A stretch of 64,000 nt of DNA from an uncultured Ignavibacterium sp. (GCA_964484125.1 CAZAEK010000008.1:24868-88867), one strand, 5' to 3'; shown: positions 16,746-33,423, counted from the stretch's first letter. A program made the numbers and translations. Notes: generated from the sequence alone by a model not told the origin.

Positions 16746-16846
16746 CTAAGATTTTATTTTTAAAGAAGATACTTATTTATCAAAGGAAATTCAATACAAA
16801 TTGTAATGACTATGTTCCAGTTAAAAGTAACAGTGTATAATTTCAA

Positions 16847-16866
16847 GTGTGGAATAATTCCTCATG
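16847..16866. promoter_or_regulatory. Dyad motif GTGTGGAATAATTCCTCATG upstream of the sigma-54 activator gene (candidate activator binding site or autoregulation site)
   Basis: It contains the perfect palindrome GGAAT-A-ATTCC. Related copies lie at 18267-18284 and, inverted, at 25568-25587. Confidence 0.3.
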
Positions 16867-16884
16867 TTTATATATCTTTAATGT

Positions 16885-18228
16885 ATGAAAGAAAAAATAA
16901 AAATATTACTGGTTGATGACGAATTAAATTCAACTCAGATTCTTGGAAAAGTTCTCAGAAAAAAAGGATTTGATGTATATGAGGAAAATAGCAGCGTTAA
17001 TGCGAAAGAGCTTATCAAAAAGAATTTTTATGATATAATAATATCAGATTTGCAGATGCCAAATGTTTCAGGAATGGACTTGCTCGAAATTAAACCCGAA
17101 CATAGTTTATTTATAATGATAACAGGGTATGGTTCAGTATTATCTGCAGTGGAATCAATGAAAAAAGGAGCATTCGATTATGTGAACAAGCCATTTAATC
17201 TTGACGAATTCATTTTAAAAGTAGAAAAAGCGGCAGAAAAGGTTACGATGCAGACTGAACTTAATAAGTTAAAAGATATTGTTGAGAATGAAAACAATTT
17301 TTATGGAATAATCGGAAAAAGCCAGGAAATGCTTGATATATTTGATTTAATAAGAAATGTATCAAAAGTAAATATAAATTCACTGATTTATGGAGAAAGC
17401 GGAACAGGTAAAGAATTGATAGCCAGAGCAATACATAATTTAAGTGACAGAAACACAAAGCCATTCGTAGCAATAAACTGCAGTGCAATACCTGAAAACC
17501 TTCTGGAGAGTGAGCTTTTCGGACACACAAAGGGTGCATTTACTGGTGCAATTGATTCTCAAAAAGGAGTTTTTGAACAGGCAGATGGAGGCACTTTATT
17601 TTTAGATGAGATAGGTGATATGCCTTATAACCTTCAGGCAAAACTATTAAGAGTTTTAGAAAATTTCGAAGTTAAGCCGCTCGGAAGTGATAAAGTAAAG
17701 AAAATTGATATAAGATTAATATCAGCTACAAATCAAAATCTTGAAGAATTAATAAATGAAAAAAAATTTCGCGATGATTTATACTATAGAATAGCTACAA
17801 TCAAGATTAATCTTCCTCCATTAAGAGCAAGGAGAAGTGATATACCTTTAATAGCATACAATTATCTGAAAAAACTAGCTATTAAATTCGGAAGCGAATA
17901 TGAAATAACACCTGAGGCAATGGAAGCAATTACAAATTATGAATGGAAGGGAAACGTAAGAGAGCTTGAGAATGCTCTTGATATGGCTGCAATAAAAAGC
18001 TCAAATAAAATTATAGACATAACTTCTTTGCCTTTTAAGGGTGACGGAGGTTTTTCTATAAAAGAAATAACAACAGATAATACAAAGCCACAGACCTTAC
18101 TGGAAGTTGAAAAGTCTTATATAAAGCGAATCCTCGAATCTACCGGGGGAAATAAGCAAAAAGCAGCAGAAATCTTACAAATTGACAGAAAAACGCTGTA
18201 TAAAAAAATTAAAGACTATAACCTGTAA
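16885..18228 (+). CDS. Sigma-54-dependent response regulator (NtrC family: REC + AAA+ + Fis-type HTH)
   Basis: REC domain with LLVDDE and IIISDLQMP. AAA+ domain with GESGTGKE, ESELFGHTKGAFTGA (the GAFTGA loop) and LFLDEIG. The C-terminal HTH is GNKQKAAEILQIDRKTLYKK. Confidence 0.9.
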   Translation: MKEKIKILLVDDELNSTQILGKVLRKKGFDVYEENSSVNAKELIKKNFYDIIISDLQMPNVSGMDLLEIKPEHSLFIMITGYGSVLSAVESMKKGAFDYVNKPFNLDEFILKVEKAAEKVTMQTELNKLKDIVENENNFYGIIGKSQEMLDIFDLIRNVSKVNINSLIYGESGTGKELIARAIHNLSDRNTKPFVAINCSAIPENLLESELFGHTKGAFTGAIDSQKGVFEQADGGTLFLDEIGDMPYNLQAKLLRVLENFEVKPLGSDKVKKIDIRLISATNQNLEELINEKKFRDDLYYRIATIKINLPPLRARRSDIPLIAYNYLKKLAIKFGSEYEITPEAMEAITNYEWKGNVRELENALDMAAIKSSNKIIDITSLPFKGDGGFSIKEITTDNTKPQTLLEVEKSYIKRILESTGGNKQKAAEILQIDRKTLYKKIKDYNL

Positions 18229-18266
18229 AACAAGAATGTAGATTAATTCCTCATTCTACAACAATG

Positions 18267-18284
18267 TGTAATAATTCCCCACTT
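18267..18284. promoter_or_regulatory. Candidate upstream activator site, about 50 nt upstream of the -24 element
   Basis: GTGTAATAATTCCCCACT resembles the motif at 16847-16866. The adjacent TGTAGA-N12-TCTACA dyad at 18238-18261 also contains TTAATTCCTCA. Confidence 0.25.
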
Positions 18285-18332
18285 AAATGTTTATTATTTA
18301 TTAGTTTAAATTAATTATTGAACCTATCTTTT

Positions 18333-18348
18333 TGGCACGATAATTGCT
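18333..18348 (+). promoter_or_regulatory. Sigma-54 (-24/-12) promoter
   Basis: TGGCAC-gataa-TTGCT is an exact match to the TGGCAC-N5-TTGCW consensus. It lies immediately downstream of the sigma-54 activator gene. Confidence 0.75.
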
Positions 18349-18353
18349 GAAAA

Positions 18354-18731
18354 ATGAACGTGAAAAAAGTATTAAAAATATTGGTTTTCAGTTTAAATCC
18401 TGAGATGTGTAAATTAATGAAAAAATTTTTTGCAAAATTTGATTACAAATTTGATTGTGTGAAAATAGAAATTGACTCAGACTGGCGAAATCAAATTTTT
18501 GATAAAGAAATAGACTGCATCATTCTTGACACTAATATTAATTCCAGAGTGCAGGTAGAAATAAGGCAAAAATTCAGCAAAGCTATTTTTATTCTGATTC
18601 CCTCCTTCTCAAGTGAACCATATCCTGATTCAAATTCAGCTGATTTAATTCCTGAACCTTTTAAATTCAGTGAACTTGAAAAAGCATTATCTGAAATATA
18701 TAAATCAAAAGCTACTTCTGATGCGCTTTAA
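18354..18731 (+). CDS. Receiver-like (pseudo-REC) protein, first ORF of the cytochrome operon; start codon uncertain
   Basis: The pattern is CheY-like: KILVFSL (the DD acidic pair is replaced), DCIILD (Asp kept), AIFILIPS, and PEPFKFSELEKAL (the conserved Lys in KPF is replaced by Glu). The stop overlaps the next gene's ATG. Confidence 0.45.
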   Translation: MNVKKVLKILVFSLNPEMCKLMKKFFAKFDYKFDCVKIEIDSDWRNQIFDKEIDCIILDTNINSRVQVEIRQKFSKAIFILIPSFSSEPYPDSNSADLIPEPFKFSELEKALSEIYKSKATSDAL

Positions 18732-20586
18732 AACACTGATTTCAATATTGTATTTATTAATTTTTTTTGTTTTAATAATATTCATTGTTTCTTCATCTGT
18801 ACAGGTTAAGGCAAAATATTCAGACGATTGTCTTGCATGTCACGAAGATAAAGACCTTATAATGGAGAAAAACGGGAGAAAAATTTCACTTTATGTAAAT
18901 CCTTCAGTTTATAAAGCATCAGTTCACGGAGGTGCTGATTGTAAAGATTGTCATCAGGGTTACAATCCTGAAGAAATACCTCATAATCCGAAAAGTAAAG
19001 GTGTTAATTGTAATGAATGTCATGATATAAAAAAGAACACTTCCTCTGTTCATAATAATGTAAAGTGTTATTCCTGCCACGGTTATCATGACGTTGTTAC
19101 TGCAAAAGAATTTGCCAAGTCAGATAATTGTATAAATTGCCATAATACAAAAAGCATAACTTCATTCAAACAATCAGTTCATTTCAGAAAAAATATTTCC
19201 TGTGATAAATGTCATAAAGGTGGGCATGAAGTAATAAAAATTTCAAAGTCAGAATCAACAAGACTATGCTCTCAATGTCATAGAAATGCATTTAACGAAG
19301 TAAATAACAGTGTACACAAGCAGGCAAGCGGAAAAGGGCAAACGCCTGTATGCGTTGACTGTCATGGATATCACAGTATAAATACAAACAGACTTAGCAT
19401 AGAAGCACAGTCGTGCTATAAATGCCACCTCAATGAAAAAATGTTCCCCGGTAAAGAAAAGGGTTCTGCAGATTTTGTAGCACAATACGAAAAAAGTGTT
19501 CATAATTCAGTAAGAAAAAACGGAATCCCTGCGGCTTCATGTACAGATTGTCATGGAGACCATTTGATTAAGGGTTCAAAAGACTTAGAGACTAAAGATG
19601 GAATTCTGGAGTCATGTATAAGATGCCATGATAAAGCAGTAAAAGAATTCAGGATGTCAAAACACGGCAATAATGTTGAAAAAAGTCCGGGAAATCCGTT
19701 TGAATGTACTGATTGTCATGGAGAGCACGGAATTTTAGCCGTTAAACTCGATAGTAAACTTTCGAAACTTATGCAAACCGATATGTGTCTTGAATGTCAT
19801 AAAGACAATAAGTTTCAATCGAAATTTAAACCCGGAACGGAATTACACATTAACGATTATTTGAATAGTGCACACTATATAAAGCTGAGAGAAGGAAATC
19901 CAAATGCCGCATCTTGTACCGATTGTCATGGCTCGCATGCGATGTTAAATGCACTTGATCCCAATTCTCCAATAAATCCTAAAAACATTTCCTCAACTTG
20001 CGGACAAAGTAATTGTCATAATAAAATATATAATGAATATAAAGGTTCAATACACGATGTCTCAGTTCAGACGAAAGAAAAATCTGATGCTCCGACTTGC
20101 GTAAATTGTCACGGTAGTCACGGACTTCTTAAAAAAGATGACCCGGCTAATCCTTTAGCAAAACCAAATGGAGTTGTGCAGTTATGTTCTGATTGTCATG
20201 CTTCGGTCAGGATTGTAGAAAATAATAATCTTCCAAAAGGTATAGTAACAGACTTTAATTCAAGTTTCCATGGACTCGCATTAAGAGGTGGTTCACAGGA
20301 GGCAGCAGATTGCGGAAGTTGTCACGGTGTTCACAATGTTCGTCCGTCTTCAGATCCTATGTCAAGTATTCACGATAATAACTTACCGCAGACCTGTGGT
20401 AAATGCCATCCTGGTGCAACACTTGCAACGTTTAAGACTCCTATACACCTTGTAGAAAGTGCAGAAGAAAATGTTATACTAAAATGGGTTAAAATATTAT
20501 ATACATTTTTAATAATTGCAATAATTGGATTTATGGTATTACATAATATTTTTGATTTTATTAAGAAATTAAGGACTAAACATTAA
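18721..20586 (+). CDS. Membrane-anchored multihaem cytochrome c (18 CXXCH + 1 CX4CH)
   Basis: I counted 18 CXXCH motifs plus CGQSNCH. Seven occur as CxxCHGxH, alternating with SVH...CxxCH units. The N-terminal signal/anchor is MRFKTLISILYLLIFF... and the C-terminal TM is ILYTFLIIAIIGFMVL. The ATG at 18721 is preferred over the GTG at 18670. Confidence 0.85.
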   Translation: MRFKTLISILYLLIFFVLIIFIVSSSVQVKAKYSDDCLACHEDKDLIMEKNGRKISLYVNPSVYKASVHGGADCKDCHQGYNPEEIPHNPKSKGVNCNECHDIKKNTSSVHNNVKCYSCHGYHDVVTAKEFAKSDNCINCHNTKSITSFKQSVHFRKNISCDKCHKGGHEVIKISKSESTRLCSQCHRNAFNEVNNSVHKQASGKGQTPVCVDCHGYHSINTNRLSIEAQSCYKCHLNEKMFPGKEKGSADFVAQYEKSVHNSVRKNGIPAASCTDCHGDHLIKGSKDLETKDGILESCIRCHDKAVKEFRMSKHGNNVEKSPGNPFECTDCHGEHGILAVKLDSKLSKLMQTDMCLECHKDNKFQSKFKPGTELHINDYLNSAHYIKLREGNPNAASCTDCHGSHAMLNALDPNSPINPKNISSTCGQSNCHNKIYNEYKGSIHDVSVQTKEKSDAPTCVNCHGSHGLLKKDDPANPLAKPNGVVQLCSDCHASVRIVENNNLPKGIVTDFNSSFHGLALRGGSQEAADCGSCHGVHNVRPSSDPMSSIHDNNLPQTCGKCHPGATLATFKTPIHLVESAEENVILKWVKILYTFLIIAIIGFMVLHNIFDFIKKLRTKH

Positions 20587-21284
20587 TGAATACTTCATCC
20601 GGGAAAAAATATTTAAGAATGTCATTAAATGAAAGAATACAGCATATTCTTTTATTAACTACATTTATTACATTAGTTATTACAGGTTTCGGTTTACTTT
20701 ATCCTGAAGCTTTTTGGGTAAAATGGATAGTAGCTATTGTAGGGCAAAATGCATTTGAGGCAAGAGGTGTTGTTCATAGAATTGCAGCAGTTGTTATGGT
20801 TATAGCTTCAGTTTATCATATTTTATATGTAGTATTTACTAAAAGAGGCAGAAGGTTTGTAATTGATATGTGGTTTAAAATTCAGGATATCAAAGATATG
20901 TTTTCATACCTGAAATACATTGTTGGATTATCAAAAGAAAAACCGAAATTCGGAAGGTTCAGCTATATTGAAAAAATGGAGTATTGGGCAGTTGTATGGG
21001 GTACAGTAGTTATGGGTGCTACAGGCGGAGTACTATGGTTTGAAAATGAATTTCTACCGATAATCGGAATGGATGGAATGTACATAGCAACAGCAATACA
21101 TCTTTACGAAGCAATACTCGCATCATTGGCAATACTTGTCTGGCATTTTTATTTTATTTTTATAAATCCTGATGTATTTCCGATGAATAAGGCATGGATA
21201 ACAGGTTACCTCACACATGAGCAAATGAAACACGAGCATCCTTTGGAACTTGAACAAATTGAATCTGGTAACATAAAAAATTAA
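20586..21284 (+). CDS. Membrane b-type cytochrome, FdnI/HydC/PhsC-like (4 TM, conserved His pairs)
   Basis: Four hydrophobic helices carry His residues (RIQHILLL, VHRIAAV...YHILY, AIHLYEA...VWHFYF). The TAATG junction overlaps the upstream cytochrome c gene. Confidence 0.65.
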   Translation: MNTSSGKKYLRMSLNERIQHILLLTTFITLVITGFGLLYPEAFWVKWIVAIVGQNAFEARGVVHRIAAVVMVIASVYHILYVVFTKRGRRFVIDMWFKIQDIKDMFSYLKYIVGLSKEKPKFGRFSYIEKMEYWAVVWGTVVMGATGGVLWFENEFLPIIGMDGMYIATAIHLYEAILASLAILVWHFYFIFINPDVFPMNKAWITGYLTHEQMKHEHPLELEQIESGNIKN

Positions 21285-21356
21285 CTTAATTTTACACTTG
21301 AATATAAAGATAAAAATATCTTATTTTCCATTAACCAAATTAACTAAAAAACTCCT

Positions 21357-21914
21357 ATGAAGGGCAAACAAACACTATTGACAATCACTGTAGTTGCGGC
21401 TATCGTACTTTCCTTCTCTGCATTTAATTTCTACCATGGTGTGGGACAGTTTAAATACGTTGGCGTGACAAAATGTGTGGGCGCATGTCATAAAACAGAC
21501 GCTCAGGGAAAACAGCTTGATATCTGGAAGAACTCAAAACATTCAATGGCATACAAAACCCTTGAAACTCCTGAAGCAGATAAGATTGCAAAGGAAAAGG
21601 GTTTTGAAACTAAAGCAGCCGAAACTCCAAACTGTCTTAAATGTCACGTACTCGGTAAAGATATGGACCCCTCAGAATTTACAGAGACATTTGATAAAAA
21701 AGATGGAGTTCAGTGTGAAAGCTGTCATGGTCCCGGCTCTGAGTATAAGACAATGTCAATTATGAAAGACAAACAAAAATCAATTGAAAATGGACTTATT
21801 GTCCACACAGAAAAAGAAGCTTTTTGCACAAACTGTCATAATGCAGAGAGCCCAACTTTTAAAGGATTTGAGTACGACAAGATGTGGGATGCAATAAAAC
21901 ATCCAAAGCCGTAA
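21357..21914 (+). CDS. Small periplasmic multihaem cytochrome c (3 CXXCH + 1 CX3CH), cytochrome c554-family-like
   Basis: It has a signal peptide and the motifs CVGACH, CLKCH, CESCH and CTNCH. 185 aa. Confidence 0.7.
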   Translation: MKGKQTLLTITVVAAIVLSFSAFNFYHGVGQFKYVGVTKCVGACHKTDAQGKQLDIWKNSKHSMAYKTLETPEADKIAKEKGFETKAAETPNCLKCHVLGKDMDPSEFTETFDKKDGVQCESCHGPGSEYKTMSIMKDKQKSIENGLIVHTEKEAFCTNCHNAESPTFKGFEYDKMWDAIKHPKP

Positions 21915-21941
21915 TTTATTTTTGATAGTTAATAAGTCATT

Positions 21942-21966
21942 CCCGTTCCGGGAAAGCCGGAACGGG
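21942..21966 (+). other. Intra-operon GC-rich hairpin (attenuator or RNA-stability element)
   Basis: CCCGTTCCGG-gaaag-CCGGAACGGG is a perfect 10-bp stem with no clear T tract after it. Confidence 0.4.
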
Positions 21967-21993
21967 TAAATTATTAAAAACCGTATTATAAAT

Positions 21994-23298
21994 ATGATGA
22001 GAAAATTTATCTACTTTTTAATTCCTCTTTTTGTGGTTCTCTTCACTTCTACAGGTTTATATTCTCAAACTGTTAATGCAAGGTTCAGCACTTCTTTTTA
22101 TACCTGGGAAAGATATGACTCAATCGGTTCTGAATCTTCCACTAAACATTTGAGGGCATACCAGAATATTCTGCTTGATGTCTCGCAGAAAAAATGGTCT
22201 TTCAATACCAATGCTCAGCTTGAAGGGGATATAATAGAAAAATCCGGAAGAGGATTTAGCTACAGATTTTATAGTCTGTATATTAAAGGGTCAAACCTGT
22301 TTGATGTAATGGATGTCAGACTCGGAAGGCAATATGTCTCAGCCGGTGTTGGCAGGGGATATATTGACGGAGCACATCTGAAATTCAAACTCGGTAAAAG
22401 TAAAGAGTATCAACTTACTGCATACGGAGGCGGACTTTCACCACTCTCATACGATTTCGATTATGGAGAAAAATATCAATTAAAAGATAATTTTTCCATT
22501 GGTGCGATGTTTCAGTATTACGGTGTAAAAGACTTAATGCTTGGTGTAAGTTATTATAACAAACACAGAGCCGTACCGAGTTACTATGCCCCAAGACTTG
22601 ACAGCGCTCTTTTTACAAAGATTGTTGAAATTCAAACTGAGCCATTTGCTGATCAACTCGCAGGATTTGATTTTTCTTTTTTCAAGCCATCTTATCAGGC
22701 AATGGGAAAGGTTTACTATGATATAAACCTTAAAAAACTTTACAGGGCTGATTTGAATGCGGGTTTTAATGTTGCCGAAAATCTGCGTTTTAATTTCGGA
22801 TTTTTATATCGCGAACCACAGATAAGCTATAATACCATTTTCTGGGTTTTTCAGCATAAGCCGCTTTCCGAATTTGAAGCAGGATTGGATTATACACTTC
22901 TTAAAAAATATAATATATATTTCAAGGTTTCTGACGTGATGTATGATAACGATAATTCTGCAAAATTCTCATTTGGCTTTTCACATGCAAACTATGGAAT
23001 TTCATTTGTAAAATATACTGGTTATGCAGGAGAGTCTGACGGAGCATTTGGTTATTTCAATTATGAGTTGCTGAGGTCAAAACTTGCAATAACATCAGGT
23101 CTTAATTATTCCAACTATAGTATTAAAAATTATTCTGAAGATAAAGTAAGTGCGTTTTCAGGAATTCTCGGATTAGTTTACAGGCCTGTTGACCATTTCA
23201 CCATTGATTTACAGGGACAGATTATTACGAACAAAATTTATAAGACGGATACAAGAATATTGCTTGGTTTTAATTACTGGTTATTTAAGAAATTTTAA
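21994..23298 (+). CDS. Outer-membrane beta-barrel (porin-like) protein of the cytochrome locus
   Basis: Signal peptide MMRKFIYFLIPLFVVLFTSTGLYSQ. Strands are amphipathic and Tyr/Gly-rich throughout. The C-terminus ...GFNYWLFKKF ends in Phe (OMP signature). Confidence 0.65.
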   Translation: MMRKFIYFLIPLFVVLFTSTGLYSQTVNARFSTSFYTWERYDSIGSESSTKHLRAYQNILLDVSQKKWSFNTNAQLEGDIIEKSGRGFSYRFYSLYIKGSNLFDVMDVRLGRQYVSAGVGRGYIDGAHLKFKLGKSKEYQLTAYGGGLSPLSYDFDYGEKYQLKDNFSIGAMFQYYGVKDLMLGVSYYNKHRAVPSYYAPRLDSALFTKIVEIQTEPFADQLAGFDFSFFKPSYQAMGKVYYDINLKKLYRADLNAGFNVAENLRFNFGFLYREPQISYNTIFWVFQHKPLSEFEAGLDYTLLKKYNIYFKVSDVMYDNDNSAKFSFGFSHANYGISFVKYTGYAGESDGAFGYFNYELLRSKLAITSGLNYSNYSIKNYSEDKVSAFSGILGLVYRPVDHFTIDLQGQIITNKIYKTDTRILLGFNYWLFKKF

Positions 23299-23309
23299 AA
23301 TTCAACATT

Positions 23310-24569
23310 ATGAGAATTATGAAATTTTACACTTTGCTGATTACATGTCTGACTTTTTTCGTTACTATAACTGCCTATAATTTTTATTCGGGCGGGACAG
23401 TTACCTCAAAAAGTATTTTTACAAAACACGTAATAGCAAAGGACAATCCTGATAACAGGACAATTATCAAATTCAATCACTCTAAACATCTGAAAGACGC
23501 AGGGGTACAATGTACTGATTGTCATACTAAAGCTCCAAATTCTGTTAATGCCCTCGAAAGTCTTGTCCCGGTAAAAGCTGCCTGTGCAAACTGTCATGAT
23601 GTTGAAAATAAAAATGAATGCAGTCTATGTCATTTTGAAGGAGTTTTTAAAAAGCTTGTTCCAACTCTCAAGGAATTACATTTCAGCCATAAGAAACATG
23701 TAAAAGACAGTAAAATGCAATGCCTTGATTGCCATAGAAATATGCCCGAGTATAAATATTCAAGTGATAATCCTCAAAAATATCCGGAAATGGAAATATG
23801 TGCCAAATGTCATAACGATGTAGAAGCGACAATGAGCTGTGAGAAATGTCATACAAATCTGACTAATCTGAAACCGATGAATCATCTTCAGTCAAACTTT
23901 CTCAATGAGCATAAATGGGTATTTGAAGCTTCAAATGAAAAAAATAATTGTATGATGTGCCATTCGGATAATTTCTGTCAGGTTTGCCACAGTGCCGGGA
24001 AATATAACGGTTCGAATACAAAAAAAGATTTTTATGCCCCTTATTGGACAAAGAATTCAGGTACAAGAATTGACAGAGCGGAATTACAAAAACTAAATAC
24101 AGTTCATACTCTTAATTACCTTTATACTCACGGAATAGAAGCATTACATAAATCTTATGAGTGTAAAACCTGTCATGATCCGGTAGAGTTCTGTTCTGCC
24201 TGCCATAAGACGGGCGGTAATCTTGTAACTGGTTTCATGCCCAAAAGCCATCTTGTACCAAATTTCAAAACTTTCGGTGTAGGAACAGGTGGCGGATTAC
24301 ACGCTGAACTTGCAAGAAAGGATATTGAATCATGTCAGGCATGTCATGATGTGAACGGCGGTGATCAGATCTGTATAAAGTGTCATTTCGATAATGATGG
24401 AGTGAAAGGTACGAATCCCAGAACACATGAATGGGGATTTATGAAAGATGAAAAAGGAATCTGGCACGAAACACAGGGAGCTATTTGTTTCAGATGCCAT
24501 ACTGATGCAAATGCAAGACCAAATGGAATAGCCGGAATAGGATTCTGTGGCTATTGCCATGGTAAATAA
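23310..24569 (+). CDS. Multihaem cytochrome c (14 CXXCH)
   Basis: I counted 14 CXXCH motifs. It has an N-terminal hydrophobic signal/anchor. 419 aa. Confidence 0.85.
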   Translation: MRIMKFYTLLITCLTFFVTITAYNFYSGGTVTSKSIFTKHVIAKDNPDNRTIIKFNHSKHLKDAGVQCTDCHTKAPNSVNALESLVPVKAACANCHDVENKNECSLCHFEGVFKKLVPTLKELHFSHKKHVKDSKMQCLDCHRNMPEYKYSSDNPQKYPEMEICAKCHNDVEATMSCEKCHTNLTNLKPMNHLQSNFLNEHKWVFEASNEKNNCMMCHSDNFCQVCHSAGKYNGSNTKKDFYAPYWTKNSGTRIDRAELQKLNTVHTLNYLYTHGIEALHKSYECKTCHDPVEFCSACHKTGGNLVTGFMPKSHLVPNFKTFGVGTGGGLHAELARKDIESCQACHDVNGGDQICIKCHFDNDGVKGTNPRTHEWGFMKDEKGIWHETQGAICFRCHTDANARPNGIAGIGFCGYCHGK

Positions 24570-24609
24570 ATAAAATTAATAATAAAAGTTAATTGAATAT
24601 TTAGTCAAT

Positions 24610-25482
24610 ATGAAAAAAAATAATCTTTTATATCTTCTTTTAATACCTGTGGTTATAATAATAATTACTTTATATAGCTGCAGTAAACTGGAAGATAATC
24701 TTGTAAATGCTCCTAAGGCAGGAATACATCCCGAGGGCTGGACCAACCCTGTAAATGAAAATTTTCACGGAAAGTATTTTTACTCGAATAAATGGGATTT
24801 TAAATTTTGTACACAATGTCACGGTGCTGATTATAATGGAGGTAACACGGGTAAAAGCTGTAATGATCCTGCATGCCATGGAAGTTCAACACCTGAAGAT
24901 TGCAGACTATGCCATGGAGACAGGAGTACTACAATTTTCCCGCCTGTTGGACTAAATGGCTCAACCTCAGTTACTTATATTGGTGTTGGTACTCATAACA
25001 CACATTTGAACAAAGATAGTACTCTCAGGAATTCAGCAAGAGTAAGATGTGTTTCATGCCACCCTTCTATAACAGGTTTTTATGACCCGAAACATATTGG
25101 TACGAATCCGGATAACATTGCTGATGTTGTATTTGATTCTCTTTCCAAAACCTCAACAGACGGAATAACTCCAAACCCTGTCTGGAATAGAAATAATCCA
25201 CAGTCATGCTCAGAGACTTATTGTCATGGAAATTTCAAAAATGGAAATTACAGACTAAATCCTGCTTCAATGATTAATCCTTCCTGGACAGATCCTAATT
25301 CTGTATATTGTGGTACCTGCCATGGAAATCCGGGAACAGGAAATCCTCTGCCGGGCGGTACACACCTGCAGGGATTTACAATTTATAATTGCTATTTCTG
25401 CCATGGTTCGGTTATCAGCAATACAGGAAATATTATAAATAAATCAAAACATATAAACGGAATCGTTAATATGAATCAGTAA
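24610..25482 (+). CDS. Lipoprotein multihaem cytochrome c (5 CXXCH + 2 CX4CH; CxxxxCH...CxxCH paired units)
   Basis: Lipobox ...ITLYSC. The units CNDPACH-x7-CRLCH and CSETYCH-x26-CGTCH resemble the Geobacter CxxxxCH/CxxCH domain (TIGR01904, recalled from memory). Confidence 0.75.
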   Translation: MKKNNLLYLLLIPVVIIIITLYSCSKLEDNLVNAPKAGIHPEGWTNPVNENFHGKYFYSNKWDFKFCTQCHGADYNGGNTGKSCNDPACHGSSTPEDCRLCHGDRSTTIFPPVGLNGSTSVTYIGVGTHNTHLNKDSTLRNSARVRCVSCHPSITGFYDPKHIGTNPDNIADVVFDSLSKTSTDGITPNPVWNRNNPQSCSETYCHGNFKNGNYRLNPASMINPSWTDPNSVYCGTCHGNPGTGNPLPGGTHLQGFTIYNCYFCHGSVISNTGNIINKSKHINGIVNMNQ

Positions 25483-25511
25483 ATATATATTTCATCAAGA
25501 TTTAATTAAAA

Positions 25512-25541
25512 AGAGGTTGCCCAAAAGTAGCCTCTTTTTTT
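25512..25541 (+). terminator. Rho-independent terminator candidate
   Basis: AAGAGGTT-10 nt-AGCCTCTT, followed by a T run. Confidence 0.5.
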
Positions 25542-25567
25542 ATTAAATTTTATATACCTTATTAAAC

Positions 25568-25587
25568 ACGGGGTATTTTTCCACACA
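25568..25587. promoter_or_regulatory. Candidate upstream activator site (inverted copy of the 16847 motif)
   Basis: The reverse complement GTGTGGAAAAATACCCCGTG matches GTGTGGAATAATTCCTCATG at 16 of 20 positions. It lies about 80 nt upstream of the second -24 element. Confidence 0.3.
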
Positions 25588-25664
25588 AAGAAAATTTATT
25601 GTCCAAATATACCCATAAAAAGTAAACCTGAATTTTATTTCTTTAAAAAATTATAAATTTAATT

Positions 25665-25680
25665 TGGCACAAAAATTGAT
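25665..25680 (+). promoter_or_regulatory. Sigma-54 (-24/-12) promoter
   Basis: TGGCAC-aaaaa-TTGAT has one mismatch at -12. It lies about 45 nt upstream of the ATG at 25725, which has a GGAGG SD. Confidence 0.6.
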
Positions 25681-25724
25681 ATGTATGTCTAAAATTATCT
25701 TTTAAAAATAAACGGAGGTCACTA

Positions 25725-27119
25725 ATGAAAAGATATTTTTCGTTTTTTTTGATAGTTTCAATAATCTTCATTTCTGAGTCTCTATTCTCGCAGTCAACAA
25801 GTTTTCATATGTTGAGAAAAGGACATGCAAATTTTTATGCTTCAACAAATGGTGGATTTGAAACTATATCAAATATTCCGATTAATGCTCTGCGCTGTTT
25901 GAAATGTCATCCGGGCAAATTGGCAAATAATACACCAATTGATACTGCAACTTATGCACCTTCCTGCAATGATTGCCATAATTTTTCTGCAGGAACTTCA
26001 GTGCCAGATACAATATGTCTGAGATGTCACAGCAGGCAAAAAGTTGAAAGAGCAAATTTCACAGACAAACACAGATCTGCAGGAATGACTTGCGTAACCT
26101 GTCATATTAAGGATGAACTACATGCAGATGCAACTCCTTATTTTTCAGGGTTCGATACTATTCAGGGTAAAACATGTACAACAGTTGGTTGTCATAACAA
26201 CGTCCCTGTAACTCCTGACGATTCACTTGCTCACGCAATTCACAACAGCAAGCTCGAATGTGCCACATGCCATGCAAGGTCTCAGATAACCTGTTACAAC
26301 TGCCACTTTGAAACAGAAATCTGGCAGGGAATGAGAGGATTTAAAAGACCAATTGGCCAATATAAAGGTTTCATAATGCTCGGAAGATATACCAAAACCG
26401 GAAAGGTAGGTATTGTCAATTATCAGTCAATTATCTATCAGGGCAATAAAACATTTAATGCATGGGGTCCGTATTATCCTCATACGATAATGCCAAAGGA
26501 TTCAACACGCGGCTGCTCCGAATGTCACAACGCTCCAACTATTCAGGAATACAATACAACAACAAAAATCGTTGTTGCAAAATGGGATTCTACTCTTACA
26601 CCAAAGAAAATAGTTCACACTCAGGGAATGATTCCTGTTCCACCTGATTATTTAACTTCTTTGGTTTTTGATTTTGCAAACTATATTGGCAGAGTTGATA
26701 CAACATATACAGACCCGACCAAATGGGTATATGCCAAAACCGGTTTAACAGGAAATCAGATGCTATCGAGATATGTAATGCCTTTAACTGCGGCACAGAT
26801 GACGGCACTTGGCTCAACTATCGGTATCACACCAATCAGCACCGAGGTACCAGGTAATTTTGAATTATTCCAAAACTATCCAAATCCGTTCAACCCGAGC
26901 ACAGTTATCAAATTTAATATTGCAAAGACTGCAAACGTTTCGATAAATGTATATAATTCACTTGGTAAACTTGTTACAACATTAGTATCGCAGAAATTGA
27001 ATTCGGGTACATATCAGGTTGATTTTGATGGCAAAGAACTTTCCAGTGGTATTTATTTCTACACAATGAATATTGACGGAAAGGTATCAGCTGCTAAAAA
27101 GATGCTGTTGGTAAAGTAA
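25725..27119 (+). CDS. Multihaem cytochrome c (7 CXXCH + 1 CX4CH) with T9SS C-terminal sorting domain
   Basis: It has a signal peptide and the motifs CLKCH, CNDCH, CLRCH, CVTCH, CTTVGCH, CATCH, CYNCH and CSECH. The C-terminus is FQNYPNPFNPSTVIKFNI...GIYFYTMNIDGKVSAAKKMLLVK. Confidence 0.85.
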   Translation: MKRYFSFFLIVSIIFISESLFSQSTSFHMLRKGHANFYASTNGGFETISNIPINALRCLKCHPGKLANNTPIDTATYAPSCNDCHNFSAGTSVPDTICLRCHSRQKVERANFTDKHRSAGMTCVTCHIKDELHADATPYFSGFDTIQGKTCTTVGCHNNVPVTPDDSLAHAIHNSKLECATCHARSQITCYNCHFETEIWQGMRGFKRPIGQYKGFIMLGRYTKTGKVGIVNYQSIIYQGNKTFNAWGPYYPHTIMPKDSTRGCSECHNAPTIQEYNTTTKIVVAKWDSTLTPKKIVHTQGMIPVPPDYLTSLVFDFANYIGRVDTTYTDPTKWVYAKTGLTGNQMLSRYVMPLTAAQMTALGSTIGITPISTEVPGNFELFQNYPNPFNPSTVIKFNIAKTANVSINVYNSLGKLVTTLVSQKLNSGTYQVDFDGKELSSGIYFYTMNIDGKVSAAKKMLLVK

Positions 27120-27148
27120 GATTGAACATTTTTTCATATTTTTAAAAA

Positions 27149-27189
27149 GAGACCGGTTCCGATATTTGTCGGGACCGGTCTCAGTTTTT
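27149..27189 (+). terminator. Strong rho-independent terminator
   Basis: GAGACCGGTTCCG-atatttgt-CGGGACCGGTCTC is a 13-bp stem with one G-U, followed by AGTTTTT. Confidence 0.8.
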
Positions 27190-27364
27190 AGGAATATTAC
27201 AAATTATTCTGTTATTTTAACAAAAAAACAAATCAGAATTATTAATAAAGTATTTTTGTTTAGTATTTTGAATAAGATATATACAAATTTGTTTTCTAAT
27301 TGTTTATTATATTTGCTAAAAAAATTATTTTAAGTATATTTATCGCAATAAAAATTTAATATAG

Positions 27365-27826
27365 ATGAAATATTTAACATTACTTACTATTATTCTGGTT
27401 TTTATAGCTGGTTGTTCAAAAATGGAAGAAAAAAAAGAAACAACAGGCAATAAAACAATGCCCCCGGTAACAAAAGACGGAATGAATAATCCACATTCAG
27501 ACATGCCGGGAATGCAGAATAATTCAGATTCCAAAGGAAATGAACAAGCTTTAAAATTATCACAGGAAGCGTTTGAGTTTGAGAAAATTTATGAGAAAAA
27601 TAAAGACGAGAAGACTAAAAAACAGCTTATTGAAAAGCATCTTGCAGCTGCAAAAGAACTCTCTCCCTCTACCAATCCTGAACATATGAATAAGGAGACA
27701 ATCAGAACATCTTTAAAACATTTTAAAAGAGTTCTTGAACTTGAGCCGGATAATGCAGATGCAAAAGCAGGAAAGGAAGAAATAGTTCAGATGTATGAAA
27801 TGATAGGAGTTCCTTTACCGGAATAA
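27365..27826 (+). CDS. Lipoprotein with Met/His-rich N-terminal segment and helical (TPR-like) C-terminal part
   Basis: Lipobox LVFIAGC, then MPPVTKDGMNNPHSDMPGMQNN. No family recognised. Confidence 0.4.
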   Translation: MKYLTLLTIILVFIAGCSKMEEKKETTGNKTMPPVTKDGMNNPHSDMPGMQNNSDSKGNEQALKLSQEAFEFEKIYEKNKDEKTKKQLIEKHLAAAKELSPSTNPEHMNKETIRTSLKHFKRVLELEPDNADAKAGKEEIVQMYEMIGVPLPE

Positions 27827-27828
27827 TT

Positions 27829-27864
27829 AGTTTATAAAGTTTATAAAGTTCATAAAGTATAGAA
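27829..27864 (+). repeat. Four tandem 9-nt units directly upstream of ccmC
   Basis: AGTTTATAA AGTTTATAA AGTTCATAA AGTATAGAA, followed directly by the TTG start at 27865. Confidence 0.7.
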
Positions 27865-28524
27865 TTGAATATAATTTATAAATCTGCCGTTTTTATCATC
27901 ATAACAGGAGTGTTACTGGCTGCATTCTTATCGCCAATTCCAAATATACCTGCTCTTGGCGAGAAAGCAAGGATAATTTTCCTTCATGTTCCGACTGCAT
28001 GGCTTAGCGTAGTAGCTTTTTTAATTTCTATGATATATTCAGTCATATATCTTAAAAAAAGAGATATATTCGCTGATATAAAAGCATTTGCCTCGGCTGA
28101 GATCGGATTTTTATTTTGTATTCTTGCAACAGTTACAGGTTCAGTTTGGGCAAAATTCAGTTGGGGTTCTTTCTGGAACTGGGATCCGAGGGAGACTTCA
28201 ATTTTTATCCTTTTGCTTATTTATGGAGCTTATTTCTCATTAAGGTCAGCTATAGATAATCCGGAACAAAAAGCTAAACTCGCATCTGTATATTCCATTA
28301 TTGCTTTTATAACTGTACCTTTTTTCATATTTATAATGCCGCGTCTTGTTGAGACGCTTCACCCTGACCCGATTATTAACGACAGGGGCAAAATAAATAT
28401 GTCACCGAATATGCAGATAATATTTTTCAGTTCATTAGCTGGATTTACTATGCTTTTTTTCTGGATGTTAAATGTTAAGGTACGATTGGAAAATCTAAGA
28501 ATTAAAAAAATTAATATAAACTAA
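27865..28524 (+). CDS. ccmC: Haem exporter/haem-handling protein CcmC (System I cytochrome c maturation)
   Basis: Trp-rich WWD motif WGSFWNWDPRETS, flanking His residues (FLHVPTAW, ETLHPDP) and 6 TM segments. It has a TTG start. Confidence 0.8.
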   Translation: MNIIYKSAVFIIITGVLLAAFLSPIPNIPALGEKARIIFLHVPTAWLSVVAFLISMIYSVIYLKKRDIFADIKAFASAEIGFLFCILATVTGSVWAKFSWGSFWNWDPRETSIFILLLIYGAYFSLRSAIDNPEQKAKLASVYSIIAFITVPFFIFIMPRLVETLHPDPIINDRGKINMSPNMQIIFFSSLAGFTMLFFWMLNVKVRLENLRIKKININ

Positions 28525-28534
28525 AGAATAATTT

Positions 28535-28648
28535 ATGAATGATATCTATGTTGTTTTAATTATCGCTTTAATAATCTGGTTTGGATTGTTTATTTATTTA
28601 TTTATGATTGACAAAAGATTAAAAAAACTTGAAGATGAAAACAAATAA
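28535..28648 (+). CDS. ccmD: CcmD-like small membrane protein (37 aa; below the ORF-track cut-off)
   Basis: My own translation is MNDIYVVLIIALIIWFGLFIYLFMIDKRLKKLEDENK. It is a single TM followed by a basic tail, placed between ccmC and ccmE as in canonical ccm operons. Confidence 0.6.
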   Translation: MNDIYVVLIIALIIWFGLFIYLFMIDKRLKKLEDENK

Positions 28649-28654
28649 AATTTT

Positions 28655-29041
28655 ATGAATAACAGAATTAAAATAATTATAGGGGTTGTTATTGTTCTTG
28701 TCTTTGTATCCATTGGCTTTTTTAAGTTTATGGATACAAAAATTGAATACGTCAATTTTCAGGAGGCAACTGCTAAGTCAAAAGTCGTTGAAGTTAAAGG
28801 CGTATGGCTTAAAGACAAGGAAACAAAATTTGATCCTGAAAAAGCAACTTTTGAATTCTTTATGAAAGATGATTATAATACTGAAATGAAGGTAATTTAC
28901 CAGGGAGGAAAACCTAATAACTTTGAAGTTGCAGATGCAATAGTTGTTAAAGGTCAGGTAAAAAACGGCTCGTTTCATGCAAAAGAAATTCTGACAAAAT
29001 GCCCGTCTAAATACGAAGGCGACGGACAGGATGTAAAATAA
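28655..29041 (+). CDS. ccmE: Haem chaperone CcmE, CxxxY variant
   Basis: It has an N-terminal TM anchor and an OB-fold-length body. The C-terminal LTKCPSKYEG sits where HxxxY is found in canonical CcmE. Confidence 0.75.
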   Translation: MNNRIKIIIGVVIVLVFVSIGFFKFMDTKIEYVNFQEATAKSKVVEVKGVWLKDKETKFDPEKATFEFFMKDDYNTEMKVIYQGGKPNNFEVADAIVVKGQVKNGSFHAKEILTKCPSKYEGDGQDVK

Positions 29042-29067
29042 TATTTCACCATAATTTTAATCTTAAT

Positions 29068-31353
29068 ATGATAGGAAAAATTCTCGTTTATATAACATTA
29101 GCCGCAAGTTTTATATCAATTATCGGCTATGCGTTAACTTATTTCAGAAAAAATAATCTTCTTAAGATATCAAGATTATTTTTTCACATTACAGTTATAA
29201 GTGTACTGTTCGCTTCGGCTTACTTATTAAGTCTGATTTTATCTCATCAGTTCCAGTATTCCTATGTCTGGGAATATAGCAGCCGTTCACTCGGAACACC
29301 ACTTCTGATTTCCACTTTCTACGCAGGACAGGAAGGAAGTTTTTTACTCTGGGCACTTTTTGCATCAATTATCGGAATATTTCTGATAAATAATGTCTCG
29401 AAAAATTCTGATTTTGAAGCACCTGTAATGATGATTTATACATTAGTAATAGCATTCCTTGCAGTGCTTTTAGTACTGAAATCACCCTTTACTACTATCT
29501 GGGAAGCATTCCCGGGACAGGTAAAAGAAAATTATATGCCTGAGGATGGAAGAGGGCTAAACCCGATATTACAGAACTTCTGGATGGTAATACACCCGCC
29601 TATTTTATTTATCGGCTTTGCTTCACTTGCAGTACCATTTTCTTTTGCACTTGCAACCCTGTTTAATAAAAAATACAGGGAATGGGTTTACTATGTAATG
29701 CCATGGATGCTATTTGCTTCAGCTACTTTAGGCCTTGGTATTATTCTCGGAGGATATTGGTCTTATGGTGTTCTCGGCTGGGGCGGATATTGGGCATGGG
29801 ATCCGGTAGAAAATTCATCTCTGATTCCATGGCTCGTTTCAGTTGCGGCTTTGCATACTCTTATTGGTCAGAAAGCAACAGAAGGATATAAAAAAACAAA
29901 TATTATTTTATCAATTATTGCTTATCTGCTTGTACTTTATTCTACTTTTCTTACAAGAAGCGGAATACTTCAGGATGCTTCTGTTCATTCCTTTGTTAAG
30001 CCCGGAATGGAAGTATATATAGCACTTGTCCTTTTCATCTCTTCATTTGCATTAATATCTGCTATTGCGATTGCAGTAAGATTTAAGTCTCTGAGTGAAG
30101 TTGCAAAAAAAGATGCGAAAGTAAATATTCTTTCAAGAGAAGCGGTTTTGTATATCGGGGCACTGATTATTCTTGCATCAGGTGCTATTATCATTGCAGG
30201 AACAAGTTTACCTATTTTCTCCAAAAGCACAGTAGATATCAGTTTCTATAACCAGATGAATATGCCAATTGCAATTGTAATGCTCGTTTTTGCAGCAATA
30301 GCTTTTTTCCTTGATTGGAGATCAACTGACACTAAAAAGTTTCTAAATAAATTAATTACTCCGGCTGCACTTGCGCTTGTTACAACCATTATCCTTGCTA
30401 TATTTGCAATTAATGAATTAGTATATATAATATTTACATTTGTTATATTTTTTGCTTTCTTTTCCGGTTTAATAAAACTCGGAAATGTTTTCAAGGCAAA
30501 GAAATTAACTTTTGGTGCCGCAGTTGCACATATCGGACTTGCACTTTTCTTCCTCGGAATTATTGCATCTTCAAAATACAGTGAAGAAGTAAAGTTATCA
30601 CTTGAAATGGGTAAACCTGCAGAAGCTTTTGGATATTTATTCACCTATACAGGAGCAGAGCCGTTTGACGACCCTCAAAATCCAAACGATGAAAAATATT
30701 ATTTTAACATACTCGTTGAAAAAGATAATAAAGAAATGGTATTAAAGCCGGTGATGTATTTCAGTAGTTTCAATGAAGGCCTTATGAAAAATCCTGATAT
30801 AGCAAGTTTTGTTACTAAAGATATTTATCTCTCTCCGATAGAATTAATTGCTCCCCAGAAATTCAACCCCAAAGATGAACAAGCAATTGGTCAAAATGAA
30901 GAAAAAGAAATCAATGGTGTAAAAATAAAATTTATTGATTTTGACCTGAGCCAGGCACCAATGGGAAATCAGGCGGAAATGACAGATTATTCTATTTTTG
31001 CTAATGTCAGCACTACTTATAACGGAAAAACTAATCCTTTAAAACTCGAATTGAAATATGTTGGAGGAGTGCCTGAACCTGTAGAAATTAATCTTCCGCA
31101 GGATGAAAAAATTACATTAATGTTTACAGGTATGAATGTAAAAAATGAACAGAACCCGGTATCATCAGCAAAAATAGTTGTTGCAACCGAAGAAACTAAA
31201 TCAAAATTTAAAAAGCAGGAAGAAATGATGATAGCAAGTGTTGCTATAAAACCATTTATCGGAGTTTTATGGCTTGGTGCTTTTATAATGATTTTTGGTT
31301 TCTTCTATTCAATTATAAAAAGAGTCAGGGATTTGAAAAAGGTAAATAATTAA
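29068..31353 (+). CDS. ccmF: Cytochrome c haem lyase subunit CcmF
   Basis: 761 aa and polytopic, with the WWD motif WGGYWAWDPVENSSLIPW. Confidence 0.85.
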   Translation: MIGKILVYITLAASFISIIGYALTYFRKNNLLKISRLFFHITVISVLFASAYLLSLILSHQFQYSYVWEYSSRSLGTPLLISTFYAGQEGSFLLWALFASIIGIFLINNVSKNSDFEAPVMMIYTLVIAFLAVLLVLKSPFTTIWEAFPGQVKENYMPEDGRGLNPILQNFWMVIHPPILFIGFASLAVPFSFALATLFNKKYREWVYYVMPWMLFASATLGLGIILGGYWSYGVLGWGGYWAWDPVENSSLIPWLVSVAALHTLIGQKATEGYKKTNIILSIIAYLLVLYSTFLTRSGILQDASVHSFVKPGMEVYIALVLFISSFALISAIAIAVRFKSLSEVAKKDAKVNILSREAVLYIGALIILASGAIIIAGTSLPIFSKSTVDISFYNQMNMPIAIVMLVFAAIAFFLDWRSTDTKKFLNKLITPAALALVTTIILAIFAINELVYIIFTFVIFFAFFSGLIKLGNVFKAKKLTFGAAVAHIGLALFFLGIIASSKYSEEVKLSLEMGKPAEAFGYLFTYTGAEPFDDPQNPNDEKYYFNILVEKDNKEMVLKPVMYFSSFNEGLMKNPDIASFVTKDIYLSPIELIAPQKFNPKDEQAIGQNEEKEINGVKIKFIDFDLSQAPMGNQAEMTDYSIFANVSTTYNGKTNPLKLELKYVGGVPEPVEINLPQDEKITLMFTGMNVKNEQNPVSSAKIVVATEETKSKFKKQEEMMIASVAIKPFIGVLWLGAFIMIFGFFYSIIKRVRDLKKVNN

Positions 31354-31461
31354 TATTTATCTGTAATTTTGACTTTAACAATTTACCTAAGTTGTTTATT
31401 TTTCAATATGTTTTTATTTCAGGATTCTCACTTTTGAATATTAATTTTAACTTTTCATTTT

Positions 31462-32346
31462 ATGTTTAATTCCATTGTATTAGTTAAGCAGGTTCCCGAT
31501 ACCACAAATATTACCGGACAGGTAATGAAAGAGGATGGTACGGTAAACAGAGCTAAACTGCCTGCTATTTTTAATTTTGAGGATAAAGTTGCACTTGAAC
31601 TTGCGTTGAGAATAAAAGATGAATATGGAGGGAAGGTAACAGCAATAACAATGGGACCTCCGAGAGCTTCAGATATTTTAAGAGAATGTCTTTATATGGG
31701 AGCCGATGAAGTATATGCAATAAGCGACAGAAAATTTGCCGGAGCTGATACATTGGCAACGTCTTATGTACTGAGTGAAGCAATAAAAAAAATCGGTCAG
31801 TATGATTTTATATTTGCAGGCAGACAGGCAATAGACGGAGATACTGCTCAGGTTGGACCACAGACAGCAGAAAAACTTGGAATACCACAGGTAACTTATG
31901 TAGAAGAAATACTCGGGCTTTCGGAAGGTAAAGCTAAAATCAGAAAAAAAATAGACGGAGGTTTTGAAATAGTTGAAGTAAAACTACCTGTATTATTAAC
32001 GGTTATCAAGGAAGCCGCTGAGCCAAGACCTTACAGCGCCAAAAGGGTAATGCAATACAAGGGGGCTAAATCATTAATGGATTTGGAAAAACTTACTGAA
32101 GGAAATCCTTTGCTTTATATTGATTCACTTCAGCACGAATATGAAAAAAGAAATTTATTTATCCCGACACTCACAACAGATGATTTACCTGTTGACCTTT
32201 CGAGGATAGGTATAAAAGGTTCGCCTACAAAAGTTTACAAAATCGAATCTGTTGTTTTAGCAGGCGGAAATAAAGAAATAATAGAGCCGACCAAAAAGGG
32301 AATAGGTGAGCTGATAGATAAATTAATTGATGACCATATATTTTAA
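31462..32346 (+). CDS. etfB: Electron transfer flavoprotein beta subunit
   Basis: The N-terminus IVLVKQVPDT... and ...GRQAIDGDTAQVGPQ... are typical of EtfB. Confidence 0.85.
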   Translation: MFNSIVLVKQVPDTTNITGQVMKEDGTVNRAKLPAIFNFEDKVALELALRIKDEYGGKVTAITMGPPRASDILRECLYMGADEVYAISDRKFAGADTLATSYVLSEAIKKIGQYDFIFAGRQAIDGDTAQVGPQTAEKLGIPQVTYVEEILGLSEGKAKIRKKIDGGFEIVEVKLPVLLTVIKEAAEPRPYSAKRVMQYKGAKSLMDLEKLTEGNPLLYIDSLQHEYEKRNLFIPTLTTDDLPVDLSRIGIKGSPTKVYKIESVVLAGGNKEIIEPTKKGIGELIDKLIDDHIF

Positions 32347-33417: not shown

Positions 33418-33423
33418 AATAAT

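Follow-up and report, generated by a model that had tools for sequence, protein, structure and literature searches.

In this study, we analysed a 64,000-nt stretch of DNA from an uncultured Ignavibacterium sp. (GCA_964484125.1, CAZAEK010000008.1:24868-88867; hereafter the window, with positions counted from its first letter), and in particular three adjacent plus-strand genes at 21994-25482 that encode a barrel protein and two multihaem cytochromes. By gene content, this cluster is a porin, a periplasmic multihaem cytochrome and a lipoprotein cytochrome in the gene order of the porin-cytochrome (Pcc) clusters of Geobacter. The gene cluster is real, yet already known, as the same four-gene pcc cluster has been published for Ignavibacterium album. 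Our analyses suggested that the triad is probably an Ignavibacteria-type Pcc conduit, which would carry electrons outward across the outer membrane and whose genes would form the core of a larger operon under sigma-54 control. The three core genes are the following:

21994-23298, plus strand: barrel gene, 434 aa, start of the three-gene core, counterpart of IALB_1839
23310-24569, plus strand: 14-haem cytochrome c gene, 419 aa (listed 416-419), counterpart of IALB_1838
24610-25482, plus strand: lipoprotein 7-haem cytochrome gene, 290 aa, counterpart of IALB_1837

These open reading frames (ORFs) lie exactly where an earlier reading of the DNA, made from the sequence alone, had placed a 434-aa protein with a signal peptide, a 14-haem protein after a gap of 11 nt, and a cytochrome with an LYSC lipobox. 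They contain 0, 14 and 7 haem motifs, respectively, and the third carries the lipobox (motif count). Pcc-type clusters are defined by adjacent genes for an outer-membrane protein that resembles a porin, for a multihaem cytochrome of the periplasm and, usually, for an outer lipoprotein multihaem cytochrome, and all three were found side by side in the window. The Geobacter-style gene order proposed by the sequence-only reading was thus borne out by gene content, in a host from the Ignavibacteria and not from the proteobacteria.

The novelty of the arrangement, on the other hand, had been overestimated in that reading. Shi, Fredrickson & Zachara (2014; PMC4245776) described the I. album pcc cluster IALB_1840-1839-1838-1837, in which IALB_1840 is a periplasmic cytochrome, IALB_1839 the porin, IALB_1838 the 'largest Pcc periplasmic cytochrome', whose ~400 aa hold 14 haem motifs, and IALB_1837 an outer-membrane cytochrome with an atypical CXnCH motif. 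The window has an identical four-gene architecture in the same organism class, and every feature of the published cluster (upstream cytochrome, porin, ~400-aa 14-haem protein, outer cytochrome with a CX>2CH motif) was found in it. In later work, pcc clusters of Ignavibacteria are taken as established (PMC6137239, PMC7399161), and an OmbB hidden Markov model allowed Arbour et al. to detect porins in this group. There are also differences. The window comes from a separate metagenome-assembled genome (MAG) and not from the type strain, the likeness being one of architecture; its lipoprotein has a second CX4CH motif, and a gene for an 8-haem cytochrome with a sorting tail of the type IX secretion system (T9SS) lies inside its operon. 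The cited part of the 2014 paper makes no mention of sigma-54 control or of a T9SS cytochrome, and names only IALB_1840 as a pcc-associated cytochrome and no inner-membrane module. The window cluster is an ordinary, experimentally unexplored Ignavibacteria porin-cytochrome operon; as a further orthologue of the cluster described bioinformatically in 2014, it changes little by itself.

The cluster can also be compared with several better characterised systems. In Geobacter sulfurreducens, OmbB-OmaB-OmcB and OmbC-OmaC-OmcC share with the window the order of porin, periplasmic cytochrome and outer lipoprotein cytochrome, and the OmbB-type barrel, like that of the window, is much smaller than MtrB; OmbB-OmaB-OmcB is an experimentally shown trans-outer-membrane conduit (PMC4245776, PMC6148476). 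The two systems differ in haem number (8 and 12 in the Oma and Omc cytochromes, 14 and 7 in the window), in host phylum and in regulation, the omcB clusters being regulated by OrfR/OrfS (PMC4245776) and the window operon apparently by a sigma-54 activator. The Geobacter ExtEFG and ExtABCD conduits, which combine a barrel with a 12-haem periplasmic cytochrome and small lipoprotein cytochromes (5-12 haems), are akin to the window as well; however, gene order and the number of lipoprotein cytochromes differ, and no family-level sequence match was detectable. Among published comparisons, IALB_1837 comes closest to GSU2724 of Geobacter (16% identity; PMC4245776), a protein whose haem motif is likewise atypical. 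MtrCAB of Shewanella, with its solved structure, follows the same principle, a decahaem wire inside a barrel contacting a surface lipoprotein cytochrome. In contrast, the window proteins do not belong to the MtrCAB/MtoAB/PioAB group: the barrel has no MtrB_PioB match and is ~270 residues shorter than MtrB, and no DmsE family (TIGR03508) match was listed for the 14-haem protein in the NCBIfam scan.

The barrel protein starts with a signal sequence and ends in ...NYWLFKKF. Its AlphaFold2 (AF2) model, built on 53 homologues, reached a predicted local distance difference test score (pLDDT) of 84.4 and a predicted template modelling score of 0.74, and contains 24 strand elements over 293 residues, of which two are short (197-202 and 208-213). 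The protein is accordingly modelled as a beta-barrel of 22-24 strands, predicted to have no plug domain because ~71% of the mature chain is already in strands and no room is left. This strand number in 434 aa is at or slightly over the published range for Pcc porins (18-22 predicted strands sensu Shi et al., 2014; PMC4245776) and well below the 28 predicted for MtrB. Simple geometry gives an estimated C-alpha diameter of ~40 A, which would offer room for a cytochrome chain.

Searches placed the barrel in no defined family. It matched no Pfam or NCBIfam family at E<=0.1, and none of the 53 family members matched FadL, OprP/phosphate-porin, Alginate_exp or MtrB_PioB, while four of them matched LptD weakly. 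The barrel is hence neither a FadL nor a phosphate-selective porin by these searches; the sequence-only reading had named both as examples of unrelated barrel families that would contradict its claim. A sequence-profile search of the PDB gave no match. In a Foldseek search of the PDB, all matches were generic barrels of 18 to 24 strands (template modelling (TM) scores 0.3-0.5, identity <=12%), including OprD/Occ, AlgE and the 24-strand ushers FimD/PapC, with OprP at TMq 0.31 and MtrB not among the top 50; an assignment of the family by fold was dropped, as these matches are generic. A search of 5.8 billion proteins yielded 184 homologues, whose named members are Ignavibacteria/Ignavibacteriae and whose sole product name is 'hypothetical protein'. 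An exhaustive profile search (E<=0.001) delimited a family of 438 clusters at 50% identity, with distant members in candidate division KSB1, Handelsmanbacteria and unclassified bacteria.

The most conserved motif of the barrel is REPQISYNTIFWVF (residues 271-286, window 22804-22851), with P275, N280, F283 and F286 invariant. It coincides with the sole segment that AF2 cannot model (pLDDT <50 for 278-287). By strand parity the segment is predicted to be an extracellular loop, and this position together with its conservation makes it a candidate docking site for a cytochrome; it may alternatively line the lumen.

The 14-haem protein carries 14 CXXCH motifs (motif count), and the same number is kept in 75 of 76 orthologues. 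Its last motif lies at the extreme C-terminus within GFCGYCHGK, and is conserved in distant phyla. The protein has Pfam matches of c7/c3 type, and a PDB sequence search gave weak c7/ActA-type similarity only.

The lipoprotein has its lipobox at LYS-C24, five CXXCH motifs (C67, C98, C147, C234 and C261) and two CX4CH motifs (CNDPACH at 84 and CSETYCH at 200), giving 7 haem sites in total. All haem Cys and His residues and the lipobox Cys are 97-100% conserved among orthologues, with Cys24 at 100%. From the pairs CNDPACH...CRLCH and CSETYCH...CGTCH, the sequence-only reading had named the CxxxxCH/CxxCH domain of Geobacter sulfurreducens and implied two such units. Both pairs are present (motif count), and the domain was confirmed by TIGR01904 (48.4 bits vs a cutoff of 27) and PF09698 (28.1 vs 21.7), which covers one domain at residues 188-252; homologues are publicly annotated as 'CxxxxCH/CxxCH domain-containing protein'. 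The two-domain reading failed: the second unit alone scored 45.9 bits with TIGR01904, the first 14.3, below the cutoff. The first CX4CH (residues 84-90, window 24859-24879) arises from a 2-residue 'DP' insertion into a CXXCH site of the family; in an alignment of 74 orthologues, the window shares this insertion with its two closest relatives (L001, L002) and no others. The family norm is six CXXCH and one CX4CH (66 of 73 orthologues), and the second CX4CH (CSxxYCH) is invariant. The paired units thus appear to be a lineage-specific local quirk and not a family feature. A new fold for the lipoprotein is not inferable, a poor AF2 model with no matches being uninformative.

A scan of 185,579 species-representative genomes identified 120 barrel relatives, and the counts out of 80 given here and below refer to the best 80 of these loci. 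All 80 are from Ignavibacteria-type MAGs with 43-94% barrel identity; a few are labelled Bacteroidetes, Chlorobi or Kapaibacterium, and the closest (94%) include a MAG labelled I. album. The locus of the I. album type strain is not among these 80. The components recur as follows:

14-haem gene after the barrel: 78 of 80 loci
Lipoprotein cytochrome after the barrel: 76 of 80 loci
c554-like tetrahaem cytochrome directly before the barrel: 75 of 80 loci
19-haem cytochrome and cytochrome b: 56 of 80 loci
CcmF within the locus: 50 of 80 loci

Such a barrel-cytochrome arrangement is far beyond chance. Divergence of the barrel correlated with divergence of CcmF (rho 0.66, p 4e-7) and, at rho 0.47 and 0.45, respectively, with that of the 14-haem protein and the lipoprotein, and the GC fraction of the cluster genes is 0.35-0.37 vs 0.333 for the window. 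The pattern is that expected of a triad inherited vertically and together, and its distribution, co-divergence and ordinary GC argue against a recent acquisition. Convergent assembly or lateral acquisition, which the sequence-only reading had suggested, therefore found no support, at least as a recent event, in a cluster near-universal among the 80 loci.

Six distant barrel relatives (KSB1, Handelsmanbacteria-type and unclassified) were sampled in addition. A 12-14-haem cytochrome lies directly 3' of the barrel in five of them, and two genes intervene in the sixth; in most of these cytochromes, GFCGYCH or CGYCH stands at the C-terminus or a few residues before it. A lipoprotein with CXnCH haem motifs is likewise present in five of the six, and two carry PF09698 with three CX4CH motifs. 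In the Handelsmanbacteria-type locus (L085 6001-11610; L086), PhoU-like and PHO4 genes stand between the barrel and the 14-haem gene, and they are followed by a 14-haem 'GFCGYCHGAK' cytochrome and then by a lipoprotein with CX3CH and CX4CH motifs. That the triad is kept in distant relatives suggests a barrel family dedicated to partnership with cytochromes, and the triad appears to be an old, coherent module reaching beyond the Ignavibacteria.

The core genes are embedded in what, from its signals and gene content, is a sigma-54-controlled operon at 18333-27182, with eight genes between promoter and terminator. Its gene content, haem motifs, promoter and terminator were read from the DNA, its conserved synteny from related loci, and the fold of its barrel from the AF2 model. 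The remaining elements of the locus are:

16885-18228, plus strand: NtrC-type sigma-54-dependent response regulator, with receiver, AAA+ sigma-54 interaction domain and Fis helix-turn-helix domain
18333-18348, plus strand: sigma-54 -24/-12 promoter, TGGCACGATAATTGCT, perfect consensus, directly downstream of the putative activator gene
18354-18731, plus strand: small conserved ORF of 125 aa, first gene after the promoter, no Pfam family
18670-20586, plus strand: 19-haem cytochrome c, 18 CXXCH and 1 CX4CH, membrane-anchored, with N- and C-terminal hydrophobic helices
20586-21284, plus strand: FdnI/HydC-type dihaem cytochrome b, whose first base is the last base of the 19-haem gene
21357-21914, plus strand: periplasmic c554-like tetrahaem cytochrome, 185 aa, 3 CXXCH and 1 CX3CH, counterpart of IALB_1840
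25725-27119, plus strand: T9SS-tailed 8-haem cytochrome, 7 CXXCH and 1 CX4CH, last operon gene
27149-27182, plus strand: intrinsic terminator hairpin, 15-bp stem with 9 G-C pairs, then a T-run
27365-31353, plus strand: conserved lipoprotein, then CcmC-like, CcmE and CcmF maturation genes (Pfam Cytochrom_C_asm, CcmE, CcmF_C)

The consensus TGGCAC-N5-TTGCW has a single match in the 64-kb window vs 0.06 expected by chance. At the equivalent position, seven loci have the exact consensus and 26 of 46 the relaxed form TGGYAY-N5-YTGCW. The response regulator (Sigma54_activat 240 bits, Response_reg 72, HTH_8 54 in Pfam), with an upstream orthologue in 32 of the 80 loci, is likely the activator of the operon. 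The minus-strand gene at 15264-16745 was considered as a histidine kinase and ruled out, its Pfam match being glycogen/starch synthase. Homologues of the 125-aa ORF (28-39% identity) occupy the same position in 32 of the 80 loci; its true start may be further downstream, because its ATG is only 6 nt past the -12 element. At the other end, the hairpin is the strongest terminator-like site in 16600-32500 and closes the operon after the 8-haem gene.

Upstream of the barrel, the 19-haem protein has Pfam matches to Cytochrom_c3_2, Cytochrome_C7 and NapC/NirT-type families, and its gene and that of the cytochrome b are each present in 56 loci. As listed, the 19-haem ORF begins with GTG and overlaps the preceding ORF by 62 nt (18670-18731); translation more likely begins at the ATG at 18721 (MRFKTLISIL...), giving 621 aa as in an independent annotation. 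The cytochrome b exceeds the cutoff of PF01292 Ni_hydr_CYTB (47.7 bits vs 30.1), and scores 65.7 bits, under the cutoff, with the formate dehydrogenase gamma-like TIGR01583. Together, the two proteins may form a split, CbcL-like quinol:cytochrome c module: Geobacter CbcL likewise combines a multihaem c domain with a HydC/FdnI-type dihaem b domain (PMC6295460), but as one fused 9-haem protein, whereas the window has two translationally coupled genes, one for 19 haems and one for the cytochrome b. The c554-like protein matches PF13435 Cytochrome_C554 (61 bits vs 20.8). In four loci (L012, L016, L024 and L006), 2-7 kb are inserted between the cytochrome b and c554-like genes, with coding capacity for further 15-20-haem cytochromes, another cytochrome b, and membrane subunits and proteins with no haem motifs; the window is compact, with no such insertion.

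Downstream of the terminator, the lipoprotein linked to the ccm genes (27365-27826, plus strand, 153 aa) occurs in 45 of the 80 loci, in most cases with the pcc genes on one side and ccmC on the other. It gave weak tetratricopeptide-repeat-like matches only, with no clear family, and may be an accessory protein of cytochrome maturation. Directly 3' of ccmF, genes at 31462-35145 (plus strand) encode the beta and alpha subunits of an electron-transfer flavoprotein and an acyl-CoA dehydrogenase; an orthologue of the beta subunit was detected in six loci, and in all six it is likewise encoded downstream of the ccm genes. Transfer RNA and Rfam scans of the 64-kb window found nothing.

By analogy with Geobacter Pcc and MtrCAB, these proteins could form a continuous electron path, in which the complex as such, its topology, the direction of flow and the acceptor are all inferred. 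First, the cytochrome b and the 19-haem protein would oxidise menaquinol at the inner membrane, and the c554-like tetrahaem cytochrome would bridge the periplasm. Second, the 14-haem cytochrome, exported to the periplasm, would thread into the lumen of the barrel and act there as an insulated wire of haems, the C-terminal one, in the invariant GFCGYCH end, facing outwards. Third, the 7-haem lipoprotein on the outer face would take electrons from that haem and pass them to the 8-haem T9SS-tailed cytochrome, which probably reaches the cell surface by secretion and would be the outermost carrier, or directly to a solid acceptor. The adjacent ccm genes would mature all cytochromes of the operon. 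Electrons would most likely flow outward, so that the cell respires insoluble Fe(III)/Mn(IV) oxides, electrodes or humics. This direction is favoured because outer cytochromes are present and because Ignavibacteria with pcc clusters are found on anodes and in communities that reduce Fe(III) (PMC6137239, PMC7399161). The related Melioribacter roseus reduces Fe(III) (PMC6137239, PMC7399161), and the Pcc/Ext clusters of Geobacter are genetically required for metal and electrode reduction (PMC6148476).

Several points weigh against such a conduit. First, no member of the Ignavibacteria-type family has been studied biochemically or genetically, so that complex, topology and direction come by analogy, and the published similarity of the I. 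album orthologues to characterised Geobacter components is very low: in published tables (PMC4245776), IALB_1839 is 19-20% identical to OmbB/OmbC and 11-12% identical to the remaining Pcc porins, and identity is <=19% for the periplasmic cytochrome and <=16% for the outer cytochrome. Second, the signal sequence of the 14-haem protein (..ITA/YN) could be an uncleaved anchor. Third, the lipoprotein is hard to place. Surface exposure is weakly hinted at by the polar/acidic stretch after its lipobox Cys, with at least two acidic residues at +2..+6 in 49 of 73 orthologues and a conserved S-[EK]-x-[DEK]-[DN] stretch, which resembles the lipoprotein export signal of Bacteroidota (PMC5080379). This motif is non-discriminating and carries little weight, because the neighbouring ccm-linked lipoprotein (CSKMEEKKE) looks similar. 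The AF2 model of the cytochrome is poor as well (pLDDT 66, and <50 across the TIGR01904 unit), and neither a fold search with that poor model nor a PDB sequence search gave a match. Fourth, the direction of electron flow is the weakest point of the model, as CbcL/MtoC-type modules work both ways (PMC6295460). Fifth, the published description of I. album is that of a chemoheterotroph, and no phenotype of extracellular electron transfer is cited for it (PMC4245776).

A first alternative is the same conduit run in reverse, as in MtoAB/PioAB: extracellular Fe(II), a cathode or a syntrophic partner would donate electrons, and the quinone pool would receive them. Direction cannot be fixed from sequence, modules of a CbcL/MtoC-type cytochrome b and a multihaem protein are known from Fe(III) reducers as well as from Fe(II) oxidisers (PMC6295460), and one Ignavibacteriales MAG was scored with an 'mto-like' system (PMC6137239). 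Nevertheless, it is typical of reducers of solids to have an outer lipoprotein cytochrome together with a further, secreted one, Mto/Pio systems usually have no outer cytochrome (a criterion applied in PMC6137239), and cultured relatives with pcc clusters reduce Fe(III), so that we consider reverse flow unlikely. Ranked just behind it, and unlikely too, is a conduit that serves another surface acceptor than metal oxides, such as sulfur/polysulfide, selenite/tellurite, arsenate or humic substances. Pcc clusters are found in bacteria that respire sulfur, selenate and nitrate (PMC4245776), NCBIfam names the Geobacter ExtHIJKL family a selenite/tellurite reduction operon, and the KSB1 relative has a rhodanese gene directly 5' of its barrel. 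The components of the window operon, however, are all plain multihaem cytochromes, and Pfam and NCBIfam scans of it revealed no rhodanese, molybdopterin or other terminal-reductase genes.

A very improbable reading is that of a common porin, of diffusion or phosphate type, whose gene just happens to stand next to those of cytochromes acting in the periplasm. The PhoU and PHO4 genes directly after the Handelsmanbacteria-type barrel, the name 'alginate export domain' protein which UniRef gives to that barrel, and the presence of OprP and AlgE among the generic fold matches could be read in this way; yet even that locus keeps the 14-haem cytochrome and the lipoprotein after the two inserted genes, adjacency holds in 78 of 80 loci and five of six distant relatives, and there was no Porin_O_P, FadL or Alginate_exp match in the window protein or the 53 members, nor more than TM 0.31 to OprP. 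Least credible of all is a recent lateral acquisition from Desulfuromonadales, for although the TIGR01904 domain and the gene order are shared with Geobacter clusters, the 80 loci are all Ignavibacteria-type, the barrel co-diverges with CcmF, GC is near the window value, and published identity to Geobacter proteins is <=20% (PMC4245776), an argument that concerns recent and not ancient transfer.

An outward Pcc conduit thus remains the preferred reading, and the T9SS-sorted cytochrome is the sole part of its operon that was not discussed in the literature searched, and may be new. The 8-haem cytochrome shows both features of T9SS type A cargo, namely a signal peptide (MKRYFSFFLIVSIIFISESLFSQ, read by eye) and a C-terminal sorting domain at residues 385-460 above cutoff (PF18962 44.6 bits vs 27; TIGR04183 39.1 vs 23). 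Its gene occupies this position only in the two closest relatives and is absent there in 77 of the 80 loci. The protein family (~465 aa, at least 120 clusters at 90% identity) spans Ignavibacteria, KSB1, Kryptoniota and Calditrichia, and is annotated merely as 'T9SS type A sorting domain-containing protein'; in some ~370-380-aa homologues, one of them from Acidobacteria, no sorting domain was seen. Three further Por_Secre_tail proteins are encoded on the plus strand of the window, a BNR-repeat protein (4364-6418), a Kelch-repeat protein (6560-8488) and a 333-aa protein with no other Pfam family (35865-36866). Four T9SS-tailed proteins in 64 kb suggest that the T9SS pathway is in routine use. 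No link between T9SS sorting domains and multihaem cytochromes was found in the literature searched, which is no proof of novelty. We put forward only tentatively, as a possibility held at somewhat less than even confidence, that the operon encodes a full route from the inner membrane to the exterior with the T9SS-delivered 8-haem cytochrome as its outermost carrier.

In Shewanella, type II secretion serves the display and release of cytochromes. If the proposed route is true, the T9SS would play a parallel role in Ignavibacteria, KSB1, Kryptoniota and Calditrichia, as a dedicated pathway for the display or release of folded, haem-loaded cytochromes. Beyond the single cluster, our analyses delineate a coherent Ignavibacteria-type triad family, which appears to combine a fixed 12-14-haem wire ending in GFCGYCH with a compact barrel of a predicted 22-24 strands. 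Iron-rich sediments, aquifers, anammox granules and anode biofilms commonly harbour Ignavibacteria, and for these organisms a defined sigma-54 operon, reaching from a putative quinol oxidase to a T9SS cytochrome, would provide a testable model of electron exchange with minerals or electrodes.

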